A DNA stretch of 64,000 bases from Escherichia phage T5. Of this stretch, positions 25,047 through 33,846 are shown piece after piece; within the stretch, counting starts at the first letter, position 1; the number at the start of each line of letters is the position of its first letter. Position numbers and translations under genes: made by a program. The stretch lies in sequence record AY692264.1. The stretch is one strand, 5' to 3'. The notes under the pieces were generated by a model that did not search any database, was not told the DNA's origin, and was given only the letters and a program-made list of their open reading frames with translations.

Positions 25047-25331
25047 TTAGTTATTCTGCATTTCTGCTTTAAATTTTTTCATATTACGAGTTTTTCTGTA
25101 ATAGAAAAATACAGATGCTGGTCCTAGCAGAATATCCATAATAAATATTGCAGCTCTAGCACATCTTAGCAGCGTTTTATCGTCAAGAGGTGGCAGGTCT
25201 GATGGACGTGTTTTATGCGCAACATACAAGAGCACATCTTTATTCTTAGAGATGAATAAATCATCTATTAGGCTGTAGATAGCAACTACAGACCCGATAA
25301 CAAACCAAAGAGCAAATGGAGAGATAATCAT
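25047..25331 (-). CDS. membrane protein
   Basis: 94 aa, two TM helices. Confidence 0.4.
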   Translation of the reverse strand: MIISPFALWFVIGSVVAIYSLIDDLFISKNKDVLLYVAHKTRPSDLPPLDDKTLLRCARAAIFIMDILLGPASVFFYYRKTRNMKKFKAEMQNN

Positions 25332-25657
25332 TTCAGATCCTTTTCACTAATTAAAATATTTGTAAATAGTGGAGTATTTCCTAAACTCATGGCTGGTCCA
25401 AATGTATTCATGGCTACCCATAACTGCACGGTTATCATACCGTCTTTAATCGCCGGATCTTTATACTCCTCGATACGTTTCTTGGCAAAAGCAACTATGT
25501 CTGGATTATTTTTATTTTCCTGAATATAGTCATGCCAAAACTGGGTATTCTCACTACGTAGGAATGTTAAAATATCCTTAGTTGCTGGAATCTGCACTGT
25601 GCTGTTGATGTTTAGTCTTTTCACGTTCTTCTCTCTGTTATTCTTTAGGAAACCCAT
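25328..25657 (-). CDS. hypothetical protein
   Basis: 109 aa ORF. Confidence 0.4.
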   Translation of the reverse strand: MGFLKNNREKNVKRLNINSTVQIPATKDILTFLRSENTQFWHDYIQENKNNPDIVAFAKKRIEEYKDPAIKDGMITVQLWVAMNTFGPAMSLGNTPLFTNILISEKDLK

Positions 25658-26150
25658 TAAACTCTTCGATGACTGCTAGAGTTCCGTGCAATTCTAATCG
25701 TAATCCATTAGCTTTGTATACTGCAGATTCTAAGTCTTCATAGTTAAAATAACCACCAAATATATTATTTCCCGTGGAATTTCGCACCATTACTTGCCAT
25801 TTCTGTGCCTTTGTACTCCAAGACACACCTAAGTATCCAGAGTTACTAGTGGATTTACGATTTCTACTATTTTCTTGTCTGTTAGATTCTCTAAGATTAA
25901 CCCATCTGTTATCCGACCTAATCCTATTAATGTGATCAACTTCCTCTGGAAGTTTACCTGTCATATATAGGAAAGCTAGTTGTTGTGCATAATATGCTTT
26001 TTTATCAAGCCTTATTTGGATATACCCATCAGACCTTAACGTGCCTGCAAATGCACCTACCTTTAGTCTACCTCTTAGGATTTTATTAGTAAATTGTCCT
26101 GTCTCAGGATTATATTCTAGCAGTTCTTTTAACCTTTCTTGAGTAATCAT
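25638..26150 (-). CDS. HNH homing endonuclease
   Basis: 170 aa; VDHINRIRSDNRWVNLRESNRQEN motif; paralogous to 41331-41855 and 61574-62107. Confidence 0.65.
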   Translation of the reverse strand: MITQERLKELLEYNPETGQFTNKILRGRLKVGAFAGTLRSDGYIQIRLDKKAYYAQQLAFLYMTGKLPEEVDHINRIRSDNRWVNLRESNRQENSRNRKSTSNSGYLGVSWSTKAQKWQVMVRNSTGNNIFGGYFNYEDLESAVYKANGLRLELHGTLAVIEEFNGFPKE

Positions 26151-26554
26151 TCTTCTACTTCCACATCACAATCATAACGACAAGTAAACGAGTCAGAATT
26201 GTTGGAACGTTGGGTAGTAATATTACCGTTACGCTGAATGGTAATAGCTGGAGTAGAGAAGTTTTTATTGGTCATAATTTCTATATTACCATTACGCTCC
26301 CTTACTAATCTGACTTTACCATATTCAGTAATGATGCCATTTTGTTGGACTTTAACATTACCGTTTTTCATAAAAACTTTGGTAGATGCTAGAGAACCGA
26401 AACTAACTGCCGAAACCATCAGTGCAACAATAAACTTATTCATCATGGTCTTCCTCACTACAGTCACGGCATACATCATAATCGTTGAAGGAATGTTCGT
26501 GAGCTTCACACCACCAAGAACAAGAATCACAGAGGAATATTTCGGTTTTCTCAA
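26147..26554 (-). CDS. secreted or membrane-anchored protein
   Basis: 135 aa with N-terminal signal or TM segment. Confidence 0.4.
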   Translation of the reverse strand: MRKPKYSSVILVLGGVKLTNIPSTIMMYAVTVVRKTMMNKFIVALMVSAVSFGSLASTKVFMKNGNVKVQQNGIITEYGKVRLVRERNGNIEIMTNKNFSTPAITIQRNGNITTQRSNNSDSFTCRYDCDVEVEE

Positions 26555-26717
26555 GTGCTTGGCCTAAAAGATCATCAGCTTCCCCAGCAGTAATCTTCAA
26601 TCCACATACATCTGCCACACGTTCTTTAATTAAGCGACCTGCCCCATGATAAGACATGCAGGTTCCAACAACACTATGCTCGACAACGTGAATGGCACAG
26701 TCTAGACGAGTTTTCAT
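26436..26717 (-). CDS. Cys-rich small protein
   Basis: 93 aa; multiple Cys/His; 3' overlap with downstream ORF so one of the two may be miscalled. Confidence 0.35.
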   Translation of the reverse strand: MKTRLDCAIHVVEHSVVGTCMSYHGAGRLIKERVADVCGLKITAGEADDLLGQALEKTEIFLCDSCSWWCEAHEHSFNDYDVCRDCSEEDHDE

Positions 26718-26747
26718 TTCAAACCTCCCTCATCAATTTATATAAAT

Positions 26748-26776
26748 ATTATAACAAGAAAAGAGAGGTTTAGCAA
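26748..26776 (-). promoter_or_regulatory. T5-type early promoter (TTGCTA-17-TATAAT)
   Basis: ATTATA 26748-26753, TAGCAA 26771-26776; flanks nearly identical to promoters at 28626 and 32030. Confidence 0.7.
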
Positions 26777-26793
26777 ATGAATTATTTCAGAAA

Positions 26794-27141
26794 TTAGTCG
26801 TAGCACCACCATAACCCACGCTTACGCATGTCATGATCGCGATTATAGTCGTAATTTTCTGGATCTTTCATCACGCGGTGGAGTTCTTGACGATTACCTT
26901 GACGAACCATTTTATTAGAATGCCACTTAACACTCTTACTAACAGAACTCCAGCTATAACCATCCTTTTTCTCATTACGAATGGTTGCTTCTTCCATTTC
27001 TTGTTCTACCTTATCCCAGGATTTAGCATAAGTAACACGAATCCAGTAGCCACCCGCTTTGAGGAAAGTATATTCCTGGGTGTAATTAGCTTTAGACTTC
27101 CACCACTGATCACCAGATTGTTTACGATAAGTACGGCTCAT
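26794..27141 (-). CDS. hypothetical protein
   Basis: 115 aa ORF. Confidence 0.45.
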   Translation of the reverse strand: MSRTYRKQSGDQWWKSKANYTQEYTFLKAGGYWIRVTYAKSWDKVEQEMEEATIRNEKKDGYSWSSVSKSVKWHSNKMVRQGNRQELHRVMKDPENYDYNRDHDMRKRGLWWCYD

Positions 27142-27226
27142 ATTACCTCCATTAAGTCTTTTAAATTAACCTAATGTGGATGAATTTTATTATACATAAA
27201 TTATTTACCTATATACAGAAAAACCC

Positions 27227-27261
27227 CAGACTACTTATTCAATAGCTGGGGTTTGTTATTA
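27227..27261 (-). terminator. rho-independent terminator (minus)
   Basis: CCCCAG-loop-CTGGGG hairpin followed by TTTTT on minus strand. Confidence 0.55.
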
Positions 27262-27262
27262 A

Positions 27263-27577
27263 TCACAGATCGGGGTGCTTATCTTCTAAACAGTCCGAGC
27301 TAATATATTCTCCGGATCCTACGAAGCCATCAAATTCATCATTTGAAATATCCGTAATCATTGCTTCCATTTTCCTAATCTCCGAGGTTTTCATCCCTGC
27401 TTTACTATTCTTAAAGTGTTTGCGAGGATTCCCGCACATCCAACAAGAACAGATACAAGGAGTAGTAGTGATAATACCTAACCGTTTAGGGCTTTCTTCA
27501 TGTGGGAAGACTGTCCAGTATTTCTTGCGGTTGTTCTTCACACGTTGCCGGTGATGACGTCTTAATGCTCGATCCAC
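27263..27577 (-). CDS. Cys-rich small protein
   Basis: 104 aa; TPCICSCWMCGNPRKH motif. Confidence 0.4.
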   Translation of the reverse strand: MDRALRRHHRQRVKNNRKKYWTVFPHEESPKRLGIITTTPCICSCWMCGNPRKHFKNSKAGMKTSEIRKMEAMITDISNDEFDGFVGSGEYISSDCLEDKHPDL

Positions 27578-27658
27578 ACATTTCTCCTAAAACTTGGGAG
27601 ATAAATGGAGTTTGCTCGACTACCTTACGTAGTTCGTAGAAACTGTATCCAAGCCCCA

Positions 27659-28027
27659 TTACATCGCCTGAGTAAATGTACGACTAATAACGTCGTTCTG
27701 CTGTTCACGCGTCAGTGCGTTAAAACGCACAGCGTACCCTGAAACACGGATAGTTAATTGAGGGTATTTTTCAGGATGTTTCTGTGCATCCAAAAGCTGA
27801 TCACGACTTAACACATTGACATTTAGGTGTTGACCACCTTCAATTTGAGGGGCGACTTCCACTTTGACTTCACGAAAGGATTCGGGGTCAAAATGAGGTG
27901 TAATACCTTCTAGATCTTCAACTAGAACTTTTTGTTTAAGTTCACCATCTTTAGAATATAATTGAATAATCTGATTATTATGAACAATATTAATTACGCC
28001 AGATTTAAGATTTTGATACGCTTTCAT
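27659..28027 (-). CDS. hypothetical protein (start adjusted; N-terminal 25 codons of track ORF lie inside a tRNA)
   Basis: internal Met MKAYQNL preceded by AGGAG RBS. Confidence 0.45.
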
Positions 28028-28040
28028 TAGATCTCCTGGT

Positions 28041-28116
28041 TGGTAGTTAGTAGTGGATTTGAACCACTGTAGTCGCTCCGTATGAAGGAGGTGCATAACC
28101 ACTCTGCCAACTAACT
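28041..28116 (-). tRNA. tRNA, anticodon CAU (Met or lysidine-Ile)
   Basis: manual cloverleaf: acceptor AGTTAGT/ACTAACT, T-arm AGTGG-TTCAAAT-CCACT, anticodon loop TTCATAC, CCA encoded. Confidence 0.6.
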
Positions 28117-28212
28117 ATTATGTTTTACTAGGCTAAGTAAGTATTCTTTGTACTCCTTAGACCAACTAGCTTTTTTAAACTTTCCTGGACGCATAGTCTT
28201 AATTCCTAGATT

Positions 28213-28289
28213 TGGTACTCCGGGAGGGATTTAAACCCCCGATCTCTCGGTTATCAGCCGAGTGCTTTAGATCGCTAAGCTACCGAAGT
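28213..28289 (-). tRNA. tRNA-Ile (GAU)
   Basis: acceptor pairing ACTTCGG/CCGGAGT, anticodon stem CTCGG/CCGAG with loop CTGATAA; atypical T-loop TTTAAAT. Confidence 0.55.
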
Positions 28290-28304
28290 ATTAAAATATT
28301 TACA

Positions 28305-28595
28305 TCACACACTGTCTAAGTAAGAAGTATAATGGAACTTAGTTTCTCCAGCCTTATCTACTTCTACCTCAGTTCGAGGTACTTGACGAACCACACCATA
28401 AATCATCTTATATCGGATGCCTCTAGCTGGTTCATGATCTTTTGGAAATACTTGTTTGACCGTTACTACTTTATACCCTTCACGCGGTGTTAACACAACT
28501 ACTTGATCACCCTCTTTGATTTTCCAAGAAGATGGAAATTCATAGGTGTATCTTTGGCCACCAGTTTGGAATACTACAGAAAGATAACGTTTCAT
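28305..28595 (-). CDS. hypothetical protein
   Basis: 96 aa ORF downstream of promoter 28626. Confidence 0.45.
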   Translation of the reverse strand: MKRYLSVVFQTGGQRYTYEFPSSWKIKEGDQVVVLTPREGYKVVTVKQVFPKDHEPARGIRYKMIYGVVRQVPRTEVEVDKAGETKFHYTSYLDSV

Positions 28596-28625
28596 TTGGT
28601 TTCCCTCTCATTAACTTATATAAAT

Positions 28626-28654
28626 ATTATAGCAATAAATAAGAGAGAAAGCAA
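28626..28654 (-). promoter_or_regulatory. T5-type early promoter (TTGCTT-17-TATAAT)
   Basis: ATTATA 28626-28631, AAGCAA 28649-28654. Confidence 0.7.
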
Positions 28655-28669
28655 ATGAATTTTTAAGTT

Positions 28670-28744
28670 TGGTGCTCCCACTAGGAATCGAACCCGGTTC
28701 AGATGCTTATAAGGCAACTGCATCACCAACAATGCTTTAGGAGC
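28670..28744 (-). tRNA. tRNA, anticodon UAU as read (Ile-like)
   Basis: acceptor GCTCCTA/TGGGAGC, D-stem GCAT/ATGC, anticodon loop CTTATAA, T-loop TTCGATT, CCA encoded. Confidence 0.5.
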
Positions 28745-28911
28745 GATGATCCCGTTATTTCAACGGGATTTCTTTTTCAAATACAGGGGATTTATCTGAC
28801 ATTACTGTCATTGCCAACTGCTGAAGAAACTCGAAAGTTAGCTTTAAACGTTCTTCGCCTAATTCAATCTCAACGTATTTCTTTTGTTTGTCAACCTTTA
28901 ATTTTAGGTTA

Positions 28912-29163
28912 TCAGCCATTAGAGAGTACAGTACTGGTAGTTGGCAATACTACAGATGAAGCAACAGTGTTTAAATGCTTTCTCCAGTCTAGGTTAAATT
29001 GTTTTCGAAACTCTTCATAAGGTTCTTCTGGATAAAAGCTAAAACCTCCTTTCTCATCATTCAGGATAACAGAGCCGTCAGTTTGTTCATATGCTCGATA
29101 TGTTTCTCCAATAATGATAACTCGCTTATCAGTACTTTTATTACGAAACTCAAAAACGTGCAT
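28912..29163 (-). CDS. hypothetical protein
   Basis: 83 aa ORF. Confidence 0.4.
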   Translation of the reverse strand: MHVFEFRNKSTDKRVIIIGETYRAYEQTDGSVILNDEKGGFSFYPEEPYEEFRKQFNLDWRKHLNTVASSVVLPTTSTVLSNG

Positions 29164-29179
29164 AGTGTTTCCTTAAAGT

Positions 29180-29255
29180 TGGAGCGGCTAGAGGGAATCG
29201 AACCCTACTCAGCGAGGCTTGGAAGGCCTGCGACACAACCCGTGTGCTTAACCGC
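29180..29255 (-). tRNA. tRNA-Gly (UCC)
   Basis: acceptor GCGGTTA/TAGCCGC, anticodon loop CTTCCAA, T-arm GGG-TTCGATT-CCC, CCA encoded. Confidence 0.55.
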
Positions 29256-29262
29256 GATTATT

Positions 29263-29340
29263 TGGCAGGGGATATTGGATTTGAACCAATGATCTCGACT
29301 TCAAAGGCCGAAGCTTTAGGCCAAGCTAAGCTAATCCCCA
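29263..29340 (-). tRNA. tRNA-Gln (UUG)
   Basis: T-arm ATTGG-TTCAAAT-CCAAT, anticodon stem TCGGC/GTCGA with loop CTTTGAA. Confidence 0.5.
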
Positions 29341-29346
29341 ATTGTT

Positions 29347-29422
29347 TGGCAGAAGGTAGTGGGTTCGAACCACGATCAGTGGTTTCAGAGATCCCAGCCT
29401 TAACCGACTTGGCTAACCTTCT
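29347..29422 (-). tRNA. tRNA, anticodon unresolved
   Basis: perfect acceptor pairing AGAAGGT/ACCTTCT, T-loop TTCGAAC, CCA encoded; anticodon arm could not be folded cleanly by hand; 5' end overlaps HNH ORF 3' end. Confidence 0.45.
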
Positions 29423-29981
29423 TCTTAATACTTTTTGGATCTTTACCTGTTAAGGATTTATAACGTTTACGTAGTCCGTTATCAGATAATCCTAACTCTT
29501 TTGATGCTTTAACCCATGAATAGTTTATTACCCAATATTCTATTTGCTCTGCTGTAATATCAGGGCTACTCTTAGGTTTACAATCAAAACAAGTTTTAGA
29601 TGAAGAATTTATTTGTTTATTACAGTAAGGGCATTTATTACCACCTATTGTATGTCCTCTTTCAACTGTAGTTTTTATTCTATGATCTTGCTTGGTCATG
29701 ACTACTAGATTATCTAAGGAAAAATTCAATTTATTCCTATCTTTGTGATCCACTTCTAGCTCAGATTCTAGTGAAGGTAAATCTTTAAATACTCTAGCTA
29801 GTAATCTATGTAATACGATAGAGACATTCTTGCCCTGTTCATAGAATGTTACAAACGGATATCCTGCACTACCTAAATGATGTGTGAGTAATTTATTACT
29901 CTTGGTAGAGTAAACTTCTCCATATGGAGAGATTAAGTATTCGGGATATTCCGGAATTACTTTGAAATTTTCTAATTTCAT
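29400..29981 (-). CDS. HNH homing endonuclease with C-terminal HTH-like domain
   Basis: 193 aa; HNH motif EVDHKDRNKLNFSLDNLVVMTKQDH; paralog of 31025-31609. Confidence 0.65.
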   Translation of the reverse strand: MKLENFKVIPEYPEYLISPYGEVYSTKSNKLLTHHLGSAGYPFVTFYEQGKNVSIVLHRLLARVFKDLPSLESELEVDHKDRNKLNFSLDNLVVMTKQDHRIKTTVERGHTIGGNKCPYCNKQINSSSKTCFDCKPKSSPDITAEQIEYWVINYSWVKASKELGLSDNGLRKRYKSLTGKDPKSIKKKVSQVG

Positions 29982-29982
29982 C

Positions 29983-30183
29983 TTATTCTACAGGAACCGT
30001 GGCGATTGGCTCAGGTTCTTCAAGGCGCTTACCTTCATGATCTACTCGAATGACTCCGCATCCTTCGCAAACCACAACTGCACCATAACCTTCTTTGACT
30101 TCGGCTTCTGTAATCAGACCAGATAAGTCACCAGTATCTCTGCCCCACATATCAATGGAGCATTGTTTGCAGAAATCAGCCAT
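29983..30183 (-). CDS. small zinc-ribbon protein
   Basis: 66 aa with two CxxC pairs (CKQC ... CEGC). Confidence 0.4.
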   Translation of the reverse strand: MADFCKQCSIDMWGRDTGDLSGLITEAEVKEGYGAVVVCEGCGVIRVDHEGKRLEEPEPIATVPVE

Positions 30184-30208
30184 ATTTTATTTCCTATTTA
30201 AGTTAATT

Positions 30209-30285
30209 TGGGGTGGCTAGTGGAATTCGAATCCACATAGGCCTGATTCACAATCAGGATCATTAACCAATTATGATATAGCCAC
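30209..30285 (-). tRNA. tRNA-His (GUG)
   Basis: acceptor GTGGCTA/TAGCCAC, D-stem TCAT/ATGA, anticodon stem CCTGA/TCAGG with loop TTGTGAA, T-arm GTGGA-TTCGAAT-TCCAC, CCA encoded. Confidence 0.75.
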
Positions 30286-30514
30286 AATTGAAAACTCGCA
30301 GGGTTAGCGAAACCATCCTCAATTAGCATGTTCTAGAATACTAATCAAGTTATCTCCTATTGCACGCAGCTCAAGACGAGTACGAATTTTCAATTGTGGC
30401 GGCTCTCAGAAACTCTTCTATTCTAGCCCCAGAAGCTTACCCCCGAACGCATGTCGGGAAAGTCTTTCCAAGCGCATCAAATAGCACCGTTACACTTTGA
30501 GCCATTGATATATC

Positions 30515-30599
30515 AAGGAACAGAAGGAGTTGAACCTTCACGAGATAGACCATTTATCTCAACCGCTTTTAAGGTATATTTCTAGGAGTGGATGTTCCT
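30515..30599 (-). ncRNA. tRNA-like element, long-arm type, fold unresolved
   Basis: T-arm GAAGG-TTCAACT-CCTTC and acceptor pairing AGGAACA/TGTTCCT seen; D and anticodon arms not resolved by hand. Confidence 0.3.
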
Positions 30600-30654
30600 A
30601 GTAAACCTATTCGGCAGTCCCGTCTACCAATTCCGGCATATTCCAAGAATTTTT

Positions 30655-30828
30655 TATAAACCAGCAGAAGCCTCATTTAAAGCATCAACAATAGCTTCAC
30701 GCTGGGTCATTCCATACCCAGTGGAGTCTAGGTGAGGCAAATAGGCTGCCCATCCATTATCTGTTTCATGAAGGCATGCTTTAAATTTTTTACCGTCCTT
30801 CATTGTTACAGTAACTGTTTTGCTCATA
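30655..30828 (-). CDS. small protein (57 aa, below track cutoff)
   Basis: read manually; AAGGA RBS then ATG (MSKTVTVTMKDGKKFKACLHETDNGWAAYLPH...). Confidence 0.35.
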
Positions 30829-30847
30829 AGGATTCCTTATAGTTAAT

Positions 30848-30937
30848 TGGAGGAAGGTAATGGAGTCGAACCATCACCGTATCACTACAGCGGGCTAGTT
30901 TTCAAGACTAGTTGCGTACCACTACGCCCTACCTTCC
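30848..30937 (-). tRNA. tRNA-Ser (UGA), type II
   Basis: 90 nt; acceptor GGAAGGT/ACCTTCC, anticodon stem CTAGT/ACTAG with loop CTTGAAA, long variable arm, T-loop TTCGACT, CCA encoded. Confidence 0.65.
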
Positions 30938-30944
30938 ATTTGTT

Positions 30945-31038
30945 TGGCGGAAAAGATGGGAGTTGAACCCATAAGGCAATATTGCTATTACTCAACCGAT
31001 TTCCAATCGGGTTTAGTCGCCAGTCTATTTGCTTTTCC
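30945..31038 (-). tRNA. tRNA-Ser (GGA)-like, type II
   Basis: acceptor GGAAAAG/CTTTTCC, anticodon loop TTGGAAA, variable-arm hairpin GCAAT/ATTGC, T-arm ATGGG-TTCAACT-CCCAT; unusually long (94 nt); 5' end overlaps HNH ORF. Confidence 0.45.
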
Positions 31039-31609
31039 GTTGTTCTGTTAATACTTTTGGGCTTAATCCAGTTAGTTTAGTATACCTCCTGCGCAAAGTG
31101 GACTCTGATACTTCTAACTCTTTAGCTGCCTTAACCCACCCCATTAATAAAACCTTTTCAGTTATGTCGTCTAAAGACAATTCTGGTTTTATCAACCTTC
31201 CTGTAGGTTTTGGCTTACAATTTGTACATGTTACAGATCTCTGAAGCATTAGACTCCCACATAGGGGGCAAGGTACTCTACTGTCAGACCACCCATTATC
31301 TTTATTAGTTTTCCTCTGATGTTCTATTTTTGATAGGACTTGAAGATTATCTTTAGATAGATTCAGTCTATCTCTATCCTTATGATCTACCTCTAATTCA
31401 GGGTCAAATAGATTATATAAGTCCCCAAATACATGAGAAATAATTCGGTGTATAAGTACAGAGGTTTGTTTACCATTTATCTGTAATTTTACAGCAGGGT
31501 ATCCATCAACTATATATCTTGATAAAACTTTATTAGTAAATGTAGAGAACACATCCCCCGCCTCATTTACTAAATACCCTGGTGCATCTTTTATTGGTAC
31601 AAACTGCAT
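31025..31609 (-). CDS. HNH homing endonuclease with C-terminal HTH-like domain
   Basis: 194 aa; ELEVDHKDRDRLNLSKDNLQVLSKIEH; paralog of 29400-29981. Confidence 0.65.
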   Translation of the reverse strand: MQFVPIKDAPGYLVNEAGDVFSTFTNKVLSRYIVDGYPAVKLQINGKQTSVLIHRIISHVFGDLYNLFDPELEVDHKDRDRLNLSKDNLQVLSKIEHQRKTNKDNGWSDSRVPCPLCGSLMLQRSVTCTNCKPKPTGRLIKPELSLDDITEKVLLMGWVKAAKELEVSESTLRRRYTKLTGLSPKVLTEQRKSK

Positions 31610-31626
31610 ACATAAATCCTATGAGT

Positions 31627-31711
31627 TGGTGGGGCTAGGGAGACTCGAACTCCCACGCATTTAAGCTACGGAATCTAAGGCCGTATTGTCTACCAGTTCC
31701 AGCATAGCCCC
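31627..31711 (-). tRNA. tRNA-Leu (UAG), type II
   Basis: 85 nt; acceptor GGGGCTA/TAGCCCC, anticodon loop CTTAGAT, T-arm GGGAG-TTCGAGT-CTCCC, CCA encoded. Confidence 0.65.
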
Positions 31712-31716
31712 GAATT

Positions 31717-31791
31717 TGGTGGACAAAGAGGGACTCGAACCCTCCCTACCAGATTGCAAGTCTGGTGTGCTCCCGCTGACACTATTCGCCC
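31717..31791 (-). tRNA. tRNA-Ala (UGC)
   Basis: acceptor GGGCGAA/TTTGTCC with G-U pairs, D-stem GTGT/ACAC, anticodon stem CCAGA/TCTGG with loop CTTGCAA, T-arm GAGGG-TTCGAGT-CCCTC. Confidence 0.7.
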
Positions 31792-31990
31792 AAATTATTT
31801 AGTTTACTAAGGCTATTAGCTCGGCGTAACTACAGCACCTTCGCTTCAAGCGGAAGGAACCGCGTCATCTCGCAAACCCAATACACTATTCAGTTGCCGC
31901 TGAATCTAGTGGACTAATCTAGAACTTCTCCCAAATCGTAGGGATCGTGCTTTTTGGCAGCCAGTCCTAGGTCGAGCTAATACCTTAGTG
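31792..31990 (-). ncRNA. unassigned structured segment (candidate stable RNA or tRNA-operon leader)
   Basis: about 200 nt between promoter 32030 and tRNA-Ala with no ORF over 12 aa; hairpins CCTTCGC-TTCAA-GCGGAAGG and CTAG-N9-CTAG. Confidence 0.3.
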
Positions 31991-32029
31991 AACTATGATG
32001 GGGATTTCTCCTCATCAATTTATATAAAT

Positions 32030-32058
32030 ATTATAACAAGAAATTAAGCATTAAGCAA
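32030..32058 (-). promoter_or_regulatory. T5-type early promoter (TTGCTT-17-TATAAT) heading the tRNA operon
   Basis: ATTATA 32030-32035, AAGCAA 32053-32058. Confidence 0.7.
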
Positions 32059-32083
32059 CTGCGTTTTTGAAATTTCTTGGACT

Positions 32084-32157
32084 TGGTACTCGGTGATAGA
32101 ATCGAACTATCACAACCGCCGTGTAAAGGCGGGGTTCTCCCATTATACTAACCGAGC
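32084..32157 (-). tRNA. tRNA-Val (UAC)
   Basis: acceptor GCTCGGT/ACCGAGT, anticodon stem CCGCC/GGCGG with loop TTTACAC, T-arm GATAG-TTCGATT-CTATC, CCA encoded. Confidence 0.7.
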
Positions 32158-32164
32158 AAAAATT

Positions 32165-32242
32165 TGGTGGGTTGCACAGGACTCGAACCTGTAACCTATG
32201 GTTTAAAAGACCAGTGCTCTAAACCAGTTGAGCTAGCAACCC
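32165..32242 (-). tRNA. tRNA-Lys (UUU)
   Basis: acceptor GGGTTGC/GCAACCC, D-stem GCTC/GAGC, anticodon loop CTTTTAA, T-arm ACAGG-TTCGAGT-CCTGT, CCA encoded. Confidence 0.7.
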
Positions 32243-32410
32243 TTAGTAACCATTATATACTTCTTTAATAGTATGGACTTTCAAATAAAGGTGATTAGTA
32301 CTAAACTCCGCCATTACTTCTTTTTCATTTTTTCCATAATGTGCAAGTAAGGATTTTGATGTATTCTTACCTAAACGTTTGTCACTTACTACTAATCGAA
32401 ATACTTTCAT
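32243..32410 (-). CDS. small protein (55 aa, below track cutoff)
   Basis: read manually; GAGGA RBS then ATG (MKVFRLVVSDKRLGKNTSKSLLAHYGKNEKEVMAEF...). Confidence 0.35.
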   Translation of the reverse strand: MKVFRLVVSDKRLGKNTSKSLLAHYGKNEKEVMAEFSTNHLYLKVHTIKEVYNGY

Positions 32411-32430
32411 TTCGAAATCCTCTATTAAAA

Positions 32431-32508
32431 TGGAAGCGGGTGCAGGAATCGAACCTACCTCTTTCTAGCTTATGAGACTAGCGATCTCTACCAGAGATCT
32501 AACCCGCA
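32431..32508 (-). tRNA. tRNA-Met (CAU)
   Basis: D-stem GATC/GATC, anticodon stem CTAGT/GCTAG with loop CTCATAA, T-loop TTCGATT, CCA encoded. Confidence 0.65.
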
Positions 32509-32514
32509 ATTGTT

Positions 32515-32591
32515 TGGTCTCCAATGAAGGACTCGAACCTTCAACCCCACCGCCCCAAACGGTGTACTCTAGCCAATTGAGCTAATCGGAG
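32515..32591 (-). tRNA. tRNA-Pro (UGG)
   Basis: acceptor CTCCGAT/ATTGGAG, D-stem GCTC/GAGT, anticodon stem CACCG/CGGTG with loop TTTGGGG, T-arm GAAGG-TTCGAGT-CCTTC. Confidence 0.7.
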
Positions 32592-32595
32592 AAAA

Positions 32596-32754
32596 TTATT
32601 TCTTCAGCCACAACATGCTTAATCCTAGCATTGTAAAGCCTGTACTTAATCCTATTACCTTTTCTATCATAGAAAAGTTATCTATGTTAAATCCTACTAT
32701 TACTATAGGGATAACCCAAGTACACATGAATACTGATGCAATTTTATACTTCAC
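32596..32754 (-). CDS. small hydrophobic peptide (about 43-52 aa)
   Basis: read manually; GAGAAGGAAAG RBS, GTG or downstream ATG start; TM-like sequence (WVIPIVIVGF...). Confidence 0.3.
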   Translation of the reverse strand: MKYKIASVFMCTWVIPIVIVGFNIDNFSMIEKVIGLSTGFTMLGLSMLWLKK

Positions 32755-32787
32755 TTAGCTTTCCTTCTCTTCACTTTATAAGATATA

Positions 32788-32815
32788 TTATACAGAGAAT
32801 TAAGCATAATAGCAA
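32788..32815 (-). promoter_or_regulatory. T5-type early promoter (TTGCTA-16-TATAAT)
   Basis: ATTATA 32788-32793, TAGCAA 32810-32815. Confidence 0.6.
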
Positions 32816-32959
32816 CTACATTTTTCATAAATTTACTTATTGTGTAGGCCACCTGGAGGCTACCAACCCCACGGCTGACAAAGAAGTTTGCGAGACTTCT
32901 CTTAAAAGCCAGAATAGACCCGCCGATCTATCGGAACCTACATAATAAGTAAACTTTAT

Positions 32960-33110
32960 AGTGTCATCCTAGACAGGATTCGAACCTGCTATCACTTGTG
33001 CGGACTTACGAGAACCATTCTTTCACTCGAATCGAACGAGCTTCTGCCCTCGCCAAGTTGGTTTCCCCATCAACCACGCTAGAATGTTAGATTGTTTTCA
33101 GTGCAAGAGT
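32960..33110 (-). ncRNA. two T-arm-like motifs without resolvable cloverleaf (degenerate tRNA or structured RNA)
   Basis: GCAGG-TTCGAAT-CCTGT and GCTCG-TTCGATT-CGAGT equivalents on minus strand; no matching acceptor stems found by hand. Confidence 0.25.
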
Positions 33111-33207
33111 CCGAGTCTTGGACACGACCGCTTCGCAAGTACATAGGCAGCTTATCATGAGTCAGCACTTCCGAATTGCTAGCTCCGTGTTCTGCACTGA
33201 AATTTTA

Positions 33208-33555
33208 TTAGTTTAACCGTAAAGTATTATCTACTTCACCATTAATTGTTCGGCACTCCTCTGGGATTGCCGGAGTGGCCTTGTATTCCCACCACTCAGC
33301 ACCATCATATTCCCCACGTTCTAGCCAAGTTCCGTCGGCAAACCATACATTACCATAAAGTAATTGTCCACCGTATCCAGAATCATATTCAAAGTCTAGG
33401 TTATCAAGAAAATCCTCAATATCTTCTTCTGTATAACCTAAAGGTAATACCCAAACTTTTTTATCCCCATAATACCCGAATTCTATTTTAATACACTTAA
33501 CTTCAGAATTAGTATTTTTTAAGGCAAGTAACAGCTCTTCTTTGGCATTACGCAT
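33208..33555 (-). CDS. hypothetical protein (start adjusted; track ORF start runs into tRNA-Asp)
   Basis: internal Met MRNAKEELL at 33555. Confidence 0.45.
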   Translation of the reverse strand: MRNAKEELLLALKNTNSEVKCIKIEFGYYGDKKVWVLPLGYTEEDIEDFLDNLDFEYDSGYGGQLLYGNVWFADGTWLERGEYDGAEWWEYKATPAIPEECRTINGEVDNTLRLN

Positions 33556-33580
33556 AGTATATTCCCATACTGAATTAATT

Positions 33581-33657
33581 TGGCGCGACCGATGGGATTT
33601 GAACCCACATTCTCTCCCGTGACAGGGGAGTACCATTACCAAGCCAGCCCCGGTCGC
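33581..33657 (-). tRNA. tRNA-Asp (GUC)
   Basis: acceptor GCGACCG/CGGTCGC, anticodon stem CTCCC/GGGAG with loop CTGTCAC, T-arm GTGGG-TTCAAAT-CCCAT, CCA encoded. Confidence 0.7.
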
Positions 33658-33666
33658 ATAATTTAT

Positions 33667-33846
33667 TTACTCAGCTTTGAGTTGTGATTTCAACCAGTTA
33701 GTAAACCCCAGCTCAGTTACGCAATCTTTATCAATACGTTGCAGGTCTCCTAGAACCGTACTTAGATGCTTAACTGATACAGCGTCACCACTTTTGCGAG
33801 CAGCTTCAATCAACTCTCGCAGTACATAAAGCATATTCATGCCCAT
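33667..33846 (-). CDS. small protein (59 aa)
   Basis: read manually; start overlaps upstream stop (TAATG). Confidence 0.35.
   Translation of the reverse strand: MGMNMLYVLRELIEAARKSGDAVSVKHLSTVLGDLQRIDKDCVTELGFTNWLKSQLKAE

Follow-up and report, generated by a model that had tools for sequence, protein, structure and literature searches.

The bacteriophage T5 genome carries a long-known and well-studied cluster of transfer RNA (tRNA) genes, and two of the small RNAs encoded among them, RNA1 and RNA2, are tRNA mimics in which a conserved, extended module takes the place of the anticodon loop. We analyzed this cluster in a window of 64,000 nucleotides (nt) of Escherichia phage T5 DNA (sequence record AY692264.1), where it occupies positions 28041-33657, counted from the first base of the window. 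The locus itself was already known; what is new is the support that covariation lends to two of its stable RNAs as tRNA mimics, together with the distribution of RNA2 beyond T5-like phages. Judged by sequence identity, the whole window is bacteriophage T5 and the locus is the left part of the T5 early tRNA gene region, with 16 tRNA genes, two homing-endonuclease genes and several annotated tRNA-like "stable RNAs". We are highly confident of this overall reading, in which tRNAs and stable RNAs would be processed from polycistronic early transcripts. All tRNAs, stable RNAs, homing-endonuclease genes and promoters described below for the window lie on the minus strand.

Comparison of positions 28000-33700 with GenBank phages (megablast) gave full-length matches of 100.0% identity (rounded) to the Escherichia phage T5 records AY587007, AY543070 and NC_005859. 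Base by base, positions 25228-33683 showed 2 mismatches in 8,456 bases against AY587007, and 2 mismatches plus one 3-nt gap against NC_005859, and a window coordinate equals the NC_005859 coordinate plus 3, up to 33683. Gene order is colinear with the T5 reference genomes. Curated records for the region are NC_005859 (T5), to which AY543070 is equivalent, and AJ604530 (the sister phage BF23). The T5/BF23 tRNA gene region holds the same tRNAs, the endonuclease genes hegC and hegD, the promoters P11, P13a and P13b, and the misc_RNA features found here, and an earlier description of this DNA made from the letters alone (hereafter, the sequence-only reading), which took the region for a promoter-driven tRNA operon with interspersed HNH endonuclease genes, agrees with these curated records. 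The differences are few: both records have the anticodon UGU in tRNA-Thr where the window has UAU, the T5 reference carries 8,208 base pairs (bp) to the right of tRNA-Asp that the window lacks, and a conserved stretch of 121 nt at 33087-33207 is annotated in neither the T5 nor the BF23 record.

The sequence-only reading had set apart three segments with no clean cloverleaf and no open reading frame (ORF), and suggested for them either stable RNAs other than tRNAs or degenerate tRNAs. The T5 and BF23 records place misc_RNA features there, described as "stable RNA with unknown functions". Segment 30286-30514 corresponds to RNAIII and RNAI, segment 31792-31990 to RNA2H, and segment 32880-33200 to part of RNAIV, all of RNA2 and the unannotated conserved stretch; RNA1 and RNA2 are called "tRNA-like" in these records. 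ARAGORN, which placed tRNAs at the positions that had been called, and Rfam found no standard tRNA within the segments. Moreover, Rfam searches of the region and of each gap, at the gathering threshold and at E<=10, gave only a sub-threshold tRNA match, for RNA1; matches to microRNA, plastid and long non-coding RNA families at E<=10 were dismissed as chance. Rfam 15 contains no family for any of the six stable RNAs, and full-text literature searches returned no functional work on the T5 stable RNAs.

That these segments encode small proteins instead is scarcely credible. Short ORFs can be drawn in them, and several GenBank records annotate such ORFs (Salmonella phage Sw2 over RNAI/RNAIII, and some Klebsiella phages over RNA1). 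Against this, no minus-strand ORF longer than 43 amino acids (aa) touches the segments in T5, and those present start with GTG or TTG or overlap a tRNA; variation among relatives tracks base-pairing and has no codon periodicity; and the curated T5 and BF23 records give RNAs and no coding sequences (CDSs). In several GenBank records of T5-like phages, small hypothetical-protein CDSs are annotated over RNAI/RNAIII, RNA1 or RNA2, as in Salmonella phage Sw2 (locus L066, 4161-4322 and 4354-4467). These are probably spurious calls on non-coding RNAs, which the automated annotation of T5-like genomes often places over the stable RNAs.

RNA1 (30504-30647, 144 nt; annotated in T5) is tRNA-like with a class II, Leu-type architecture. 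The alignment comprised 29 distinct variants from Tequintavirus, Epseptimavirus and Klebsiella Sugarlandvirus phages, and its fold consists of a 6-bp acceptor stem, a 3-bp D stem with the loop GAAUUGGUAGA (class II, tRNA-Leu type), an equivalent of the anticodon stem, two further helices tipped by an 8-nt loop, a 6-bp variable arm, and a T arm. In this fold 99.6% of the cells are paired and both sides have changed in 13 of 34 pairs, compared with 1-2 in slid controls, and none of 500 shuffles reached the observed values. Compensatory substitutions occur in the acceptor, D and T helices, as expected of a tRNA-like structured RNA. The 8-nt loop, ACAUCCAC, is identical in 28 of the 29 variants, the exception being the NC_005859 copy. 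At position 30589, inside this loop, NC_005859/AY543070 have G, while the window and AY587007 have A, a difference that may be a reference error or a strain polymorphism.

RNA1 is not a canonical tRNA. It aligns with the Rfam tRNA model from end to end at 24 bits, below the gathering score of 29 bits, with a 47-nt insert replacing the anticodon loop; it has no 7-nt anticodon loop and is not called by ARAGORN. The acceptor stem, D stem, long variable arm and T arm of canonical class II tRNA-Leu are also present in RNA1, whereas U33, a conserved anticodon and the 7-nt anticodon loop are without counterpart. The position equivalent to U33 varies (G, C or U) and no anticodon is conserved among the variants; RNA1 is therefore neither a decoding nor an intron-containing tRNA. 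The latter possibility was considered and rejected, as no 7-nt loop could be restored. The sequence of its D region presumably resembles that of Escherichia coli tRNA-Leu.

RNA2 (32962-33086, 125 nt; annotated in T5 and BF23) is tRNA-like as well. Its fold, derived from 17 sequences, has an 8-bp acceptor stem and D and T arms; where a tRNA has its anticodon loop, RNA2 has an outer helix of 5 bp, a second helix (GGGY/RUCC), an internal hairpin that resembles a T arm (CUCG-UUCGAUU-CGAG) and the invariant strand UGAAAGAAUGGUUCNCGUAA; a loop of RNA2 reads GAAAGAAUGGUUC. Across the 17 sequences, pairing is kept in 97.3% of the cells and both sides have changed in 21 of 32 pairs vs. 2-5 in slid controls, with compensatory substitutions in the acceptor, D and T helices. 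A covariance model of RNA2, trained on these aligned sequences, scored a metagenome homolog left out of training at 77.5 bits, and ordinary tRNAs at 20-35 bits. There was no Rfam match at E<=10 and no ARAGORN call, so that RNA2 likewise falls outside the canonical tRNAs. The two mimics differ in the module they carry, RNA1 having an arm tipped by ACAUCCAC and RNA2 a branched domain that contains the invariant strand and a second hairpin of T-arm type.

This pattern of change bears on whether the segments might be decaying tRNA pseudogenes, that is, neutral remnants of duplicated tRNA genes. RNA1 and RNA2 are clearly derived from tRNA architecture, and T5 also has a tRNA flagged as a pseudogene, Gln-CUG. 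We consider this explanation highly improbable all the same, as conservation of the segments equals that of functional tRNAs and exceeds that of most adjacent protein genes, substitutions are overwhelmingly compensatory, and the most conserved parts are the inserted modules, which lie beyond the tRNA scaffold.

Outside the T5 group, distant blastn matches placed the RNA2 core in Pantoea phage AAS21 and in the T4-like Acinetobacter phage 133 (Acj133), where it sits between tRNA-Gly and tRNA-Cys. Exact-pattern scans for the core in IMG/VR, 185,579 reference genomes and JGI metagenomes added three contigs, one of 164 kilobases (kb) from IMG/VR, one of 167 kb from a metagenome bin and one of 10 kb from a metagenome; beyond the T5-like phages they gave four divergent matches only, in Acj133 and in loci L052, L064 and L076. 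No host counterpart of RNA2 was found, the sole match in the 185,579 reference genomes being the 167-kb, apparently T4-like, contig of the metagenome bin. The homologs outside Tequintavirus and Epseptimavirus span 2465-2575 in Acinetobacter phage 133 (L049), 2487-2610 in L050, 3708-3831 in L052, 6934-7052 in L064 and 7257-7384 in L076, and wherever tRNAs could be checked (Acj133, L050 and L064) they lie inside tRNA clusters. Among the homologs the core strand GAAAGAAUGGUUCNCGUAANUCCG is invariant and the surrounding helices covary. On these alignments, RNA2 crosses phage families, occurring in T5-like siphoviruses and T4-like Acinetobacter myoviruses.

The RNA2 covariance model also picked out, at tRNA-level scores (16-21 bits), elements of 76-132 nt in T5 RNAX (L065, 7870-7945) and in two contigs of uncultured phages, L052 (8966-9232) and L076 (10126-10335). 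ARAGORN called no tRNA anywhere in L052, and the T5 RNAX that holds one of these low-scoring elements is absent from the window. Further tRNA-like RNAs may thus lie unannotated in phage tRNA clusters.

Phage T4 offers the closest parallel. Its rnaC (species 1, 139 nt) and rnaD (species 2, 119 nt) are small stable RNAs to which no function has been assigned, like those of T5, and they lie in a similar setting, inside a phage tRNA cluster beside the homing endonuclease gene segB, although the T4 endonuclease is of the GIY-YIG type and those of T5 are HNH enzymes. Furthermore, rnaC has a tRNA-type T arm. Comparison of rnaC and rnaD with the T5 stable RNAs (blastn and nhmmer) gave no significant similarity, only short T-arm matches, and the RNA2 covariance model gave rnaC 19.2 bits, a score like those of ordinary tRNAs. 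Homology had been considered on the basis of a 15-nt match (UCGAUUCGAG...) and a shared CGUAAGNCCG motif, and was rejected, rnaC not being separable from ordinary tRNAs. With no homology at the level of sequence or profile, the likeness is one of analogy and not of family membership.

The other stable RNAs share the general plan. All stable RNAs are predicted to be closed by a terminal stem around three arms, which gives a cloverleaf-like four-way junction. RNAIII (30287-30392, 106 nt; annotated in T5 and BF23) has a predicted 12-bp terminal stem and three hairpins (fold z -2.85), and RNA2H (31811-31982, 172 nt; annotated in both records) a predicted 10-bp terminal stem and three arms (fold z -3.0). 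RNAI (30397-30503, 107 nt; annotated in both) has an acceptor-like stem, GGCUC/GAGCC, followed by GCCA, and consists of invariant 5' and 3' modules around a variable middle; its 3' end, GAGCC-G-CCA, is tRNA-like, and its central hairpin covaries between the 107-nt form of Tequintavirus and the 100-nt form of Epseptimavirus. RNAIV (32841-32943, 103 nt; annotated in both; fold z -2.85) is predicted to form a cloverleaf-like four-way junction of 36 pairs. Pair counts for RNAIV comprised 3 kept double changes, many one-sided G-U transitions and 3 broken cells, which is weakly compatible with the modelled fold.

The unannotated stretch (33087-33207, 121 nt) lies between the T5.067 stop codon and RNA2, has no ORF longer than 29 aa on its strand and is predicted to be closed by a stem of 10-11 bp; at 98.7% identity across 12 relatives it exceeds the flanking CDS. 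It may represent a seventh stable RNA, or else serve to stabilize the 3' end of the upstream messenger RNA (mRNA).

Conservation was compared feature by feature with 13 related genomes from IMG/VR. Mean identity was 99.4% for RNAIII, 98.7% for 33087-33207, 97.4% for RNA2H, 96.5% for RNAIV, 96.0% for RNA2, 94.5% for RNAI and 91.0% for RNA1, with most tRNAs at 93-100% and the interspersed CDSs at 71-94%. Indeed, RNAIII is 100% identical in loci whose adjacent 57-aa protein keeps only 59% identity. The stable RNAs are under selection for both sequence and structure, and six or seven small RNAs outdo most neighboring protein genes in conservation. Their database label has read "unknown function" for decades.

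As the most likely role, although at less than even odds, we tentatively propose that the stable RNAs would be matured like tRNAs and would then serve in trans to mimic tRNAs or to decoy host factors that bind them, tRNA-targeting defense nucleases among these. In RNA1 and RNA2, and perhaps in others, the functional surface would lie in the replaced anticodon arm. A T5 deletion of 29191-32442, which removes RNAIII, RNAI, RNA1 and RNA2H, is viable (PMC11464382), and such dispensability in the laboratory fits an accessory or counter-defense role. The more specific idea that RNA1 and RNA2 are the founding members of phage-specific tRNA-mimic families, serving as decoys or inhibitors of host tRNA-directed enzymes (e.g., defense anticodon nucleases), is distinctly unlikely in our judgment; if true, it would mean an RNA-based counter-defense that complements the nuclease-resistant tRNAs of the phage. 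RNA1 and RNA2 are concrete candidates for RNA-based interference with tRNA-directed host factors.

A different explanation confines the segments to a role in cis, as structured spacers that punctuate the polycistronic transcript, offer entry to RNase P or RNase E and protect upstream mRNA 3' ends, and that have no function once released. Each segment does have tRNAs or ORFs on either side and a terminal stem that closes it, the deletion mutants without RNAIII, RNAI, RNA1 and RNA2H are viable, and 33087-33207 comes directly after the T5.067 stop codon and ahead of RNA2 and would therefore remain, after RNase P cleavage, as a 3' stem-loop on the T5.067 mRNA. For the segments as a whole we find this explanation unlikely, as the near-invariant single-stranded loops of RNA1 (28 of 29 variants) and RNA2 exceed what a spacer needs, unrelated T4-like phages retain the RNA2 core among different neighbors, and the label "stable RNA" in the records implies accumulation. 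For 33087-33207, a spacer or stabilizer in cis is the likelier model.

Several points weigh against our proposal of tRNA-like RNAs acting in trans. The term "stable RNA", meaning a species that accumulates, comes from the annotation of NC_005859 and AJ604530. The minimum-energy fold of RNAI is no better than that of shuffled sequence (z -0.68), and RNAIII, RNA2H and 33087-33207 are nearly invariant, so that covariation neither supports nor refutes their predicted folds. A decoy function is a matter of inference, no target or partner having been found. Finally, E. coli LeuRS requires the discriminator A73, and RNA1 has U at the discriminator position and no encoded CCA end; for these two reasons RNA1, as read from its sequence, is probably not aminoacylated.

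Among the tRNA genes proper, ARAGORN called 15 in the whole window, all on the minus strand and all inside 28041-33657, and 14 tRNAs pass the gathering score of the Rfam tRNA model (RF00005). The sequence-only reading had counted at least 17 minus-strand tRNAs; we find 16 genes, and a 17th is reached only by counting the tRNA-like RNA1. From left to right, those supported by ARAGORN, Rfam and the T5 annotation are the elongator tRNA-Met(CAU) (28041-28116; Rfam 51.5 bits; T5t01), tRNA-Ile(GAU) (28213-28289), tRNA-Gln(UUG) (29263-29340), tRNA-Gln(CUG) (29347-29422; flagged as a pseudogene in the T5 record), tRNA-His(GUG) (30209-30286), tRNA-Ser(UGA) (30848-30937), tRNA-Leu(UAG) (31627-31711), tRNA-Ala(UGC) (31717-31791), tRNA-Val(UAC) (32084-32157), tRNA-Lys(UUU) (32165-32242; see also PMC11464382), the initiator tRNA-fMet(CAU) (32431-32508), tRNA-Pro(UGG) (32515-32591) and tRNA-Asp(GUC) (33581-33657). 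To these are added a tRNA-Thr body with the anticodon UAU (28670-28744; ARAGORN and sequence comparison), tRNA-Gly(UCC) (29180-29255), and tRNA-Ser(GGA) (30945-31038; ARAGORN and T5 annotation). Apart from CUG, these are the 15 anticodons that had been listed from the letters (CAU twice), and the tRNA then left without an anticodon is probably Gln(CUG). The atypical T-loops that had been pointed out are likewise in the sequence, TTTAAAT in tRNA-Ile(GAU) and TTCAACT in tRNA-Ser(GGA) and RNA1.

Fifteen of the 16 tRNAs are recognized by ARAGORN, with the cloverleaf and 7-nt anticodon loop of canonical tRNAs. tRNA-Ser(GGA) matches in Rfam only as tRNA-Sec (39 bits, below the cut-off), and folds as a cloverleaf. 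The gene missed by ARAGORN is tRNA-Gly(UCC), for which Rfam gave only a tRNA-Sec match of 26.7 bits, below the cut-off. We accept it as the 16th gene because it folds as a cloverleaf, is annotated as T5t04 in the T5 record and is 100% identical in 9 relatives. The T5 record holds notes of amber-suppressor tests for each tRNA, and that of T5t04 reports an amber suppressor after anticodon change.

The anticodon UAU, given for one tRNA by the sequence-only reading, is present in the window but peculiar to it. Position 28710 (anticodon position 35) shows a G-to-A change relative to the references, which turns UGU of tRNA-Thr into UAU; UGU is found in both T5 reference genomes, in BF23 and in every one of the 28 homologous tRNA-Thr copies that were checked in related loci. 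Owing to the anticodon UAU, ARAGORN names this tRNA Ile. Either a mutation in the phage stock or a sequencing error accounts for the change.

The 16 tRNAs would supplement or replace host tRNAs, as has been shown experimentally for tRNA-Lys. The T5 tRNA-Lys resists the PARIS nuclease AriB, neutralizes PARIS and rescues infection (PMC11464382), and the gene at 32165-32242 is that very tRNA-Lys. Another T5 tRNA, tRNA-Tyr, counters retron Eco7/Ec78, and the genes for tRNA-Tyr and for Rad lie within the part that is deleted here. A counter-defense role has been demonstrated for individual tRNAs only, and the cluster as a whole fits it. Both tRNA-Lys(UUU) and tRNA-Pro(UGG) share only 73-80% identity with the genes of related phages, most other tRNAs being at 93-100%; given the resistance of tRNA-Lys to PARIS, these two may be alleles exchanged under defense pressure.

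The two HNH homing-endonuclease genes are hegD (29400-29981; F-TflII) and hegC (31025-31609; F-TflI), both ORFs annotated in T5 (PMC2330249) and labeled in AY543070 as "F-TflII" and "TflI", respectively. The hegD product matches Pfam HNH_3 at 38.3 bits, above the cut-off, and NUMOD4 at 27.8 bits; that of hegC matches HNH_3 at 26.6 bits, also above the cut-off. As the sequence-only reading had noted, the 3' ends of both genes overlap tRNA 5' ends: hegD reaches 23 nt into tRNA-Gln(CUG) (29400-29422) and hegC 14 nt into tRNA-Ser(GGA) (31025-31038), the overlaps falling in the stop regions. Given these overlaps, tRNA maturation would cut the mRNAs of hegC and hegD and keep their expression low, in line with the control of expression through transcript processing that was proposed for F-TflI and F-TflII within the T5 tRNA cluster (PMC2330249, which cites Akulenko et al., 2004, for the two names). 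Among the 13 related loci hegD is present in 2 and hegC in none, with the flanking genes present, and BF23 is without both. Such patchy presence is expected of mobile homing genes, and hegC and hegD would be selfish homing elements with a putative site-specific cleavage of the endonuclease-free allele.

The promoters that had been read within the tRNA region correspond to three elements of approximately 75 bp at the annotated early promoters P11 (28600-28674; TTGCTT-17-TATAAT), P13b (32004-32078) and P13a (32760-32834; TTGCTA-17-TATAAT). The three align well with one another, and in each an A-tract (AAAAA) is followed by TTGCT(T/A), 17 nt and TATAAT, so that the -35 and -10 hexamers and the spacing of a sigma-70 early promoter are kept between copies. 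A generic scan for promoters and terminators gave counts not above those of shuffles (16 promoter-like sites vs. 15.3) and recovered P13a alone, as TTGCTT, the -35 hexamer of T5, does not satisfy its 4-of-6 rule; since the scan is uninformative alone, support for the promoters comes from the conserved repeat and the T5 annotation.

From the strong early promoters P13a, P13b and P11, and from others upstream, host sigma-70 RNA polymerase would transcribe the region leftwards into polycistronic transcripts that mix tRNAs, small ORFs, hegC/hegD and the non-tRNA RNAs. RNase P would act at 5' ends, and endo- and exonucleases together with the CCA-adding enzyme at 3' ends. In this way tRNAs and stable RNAs would all be released by the host tRNA-processing enzymes, which would cut at each acceptor-like stem.

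To the right of the cluster, the window differs from wild-type T5 by a deletion of 8,208 bp, with its junction (GCTTTGAGTT) at 33674-33683. The deletion lies between 10-bp direct repeats of this sequence and removes the right part of the tRNA cluster. Lost with it are nine tRNAs (Asn, Cys, Phe, Trp, Glu, Tyr, Ile2, Ser3 and Arg), RNA3 and RNAX (719 nt), hegA, and T5.076 (Rad, a retron inhibitor). The deletion also creates a fusion ORF (33667-33846) from the N-terminal part of T5.081 and the last codons of T5.068. The deletion resembles those of heat-stable laboratory deletion strains of T5 such as T5st(0).

Immediately downstream of the cluster, positions 27659-28027 encode a 122-aa protein that matches Pfam Gly_radical at 66.5 bits, which identifies it, on this domain match, as a phage-encoded, GrcA-like spare part for pyruvate formate-lyase.

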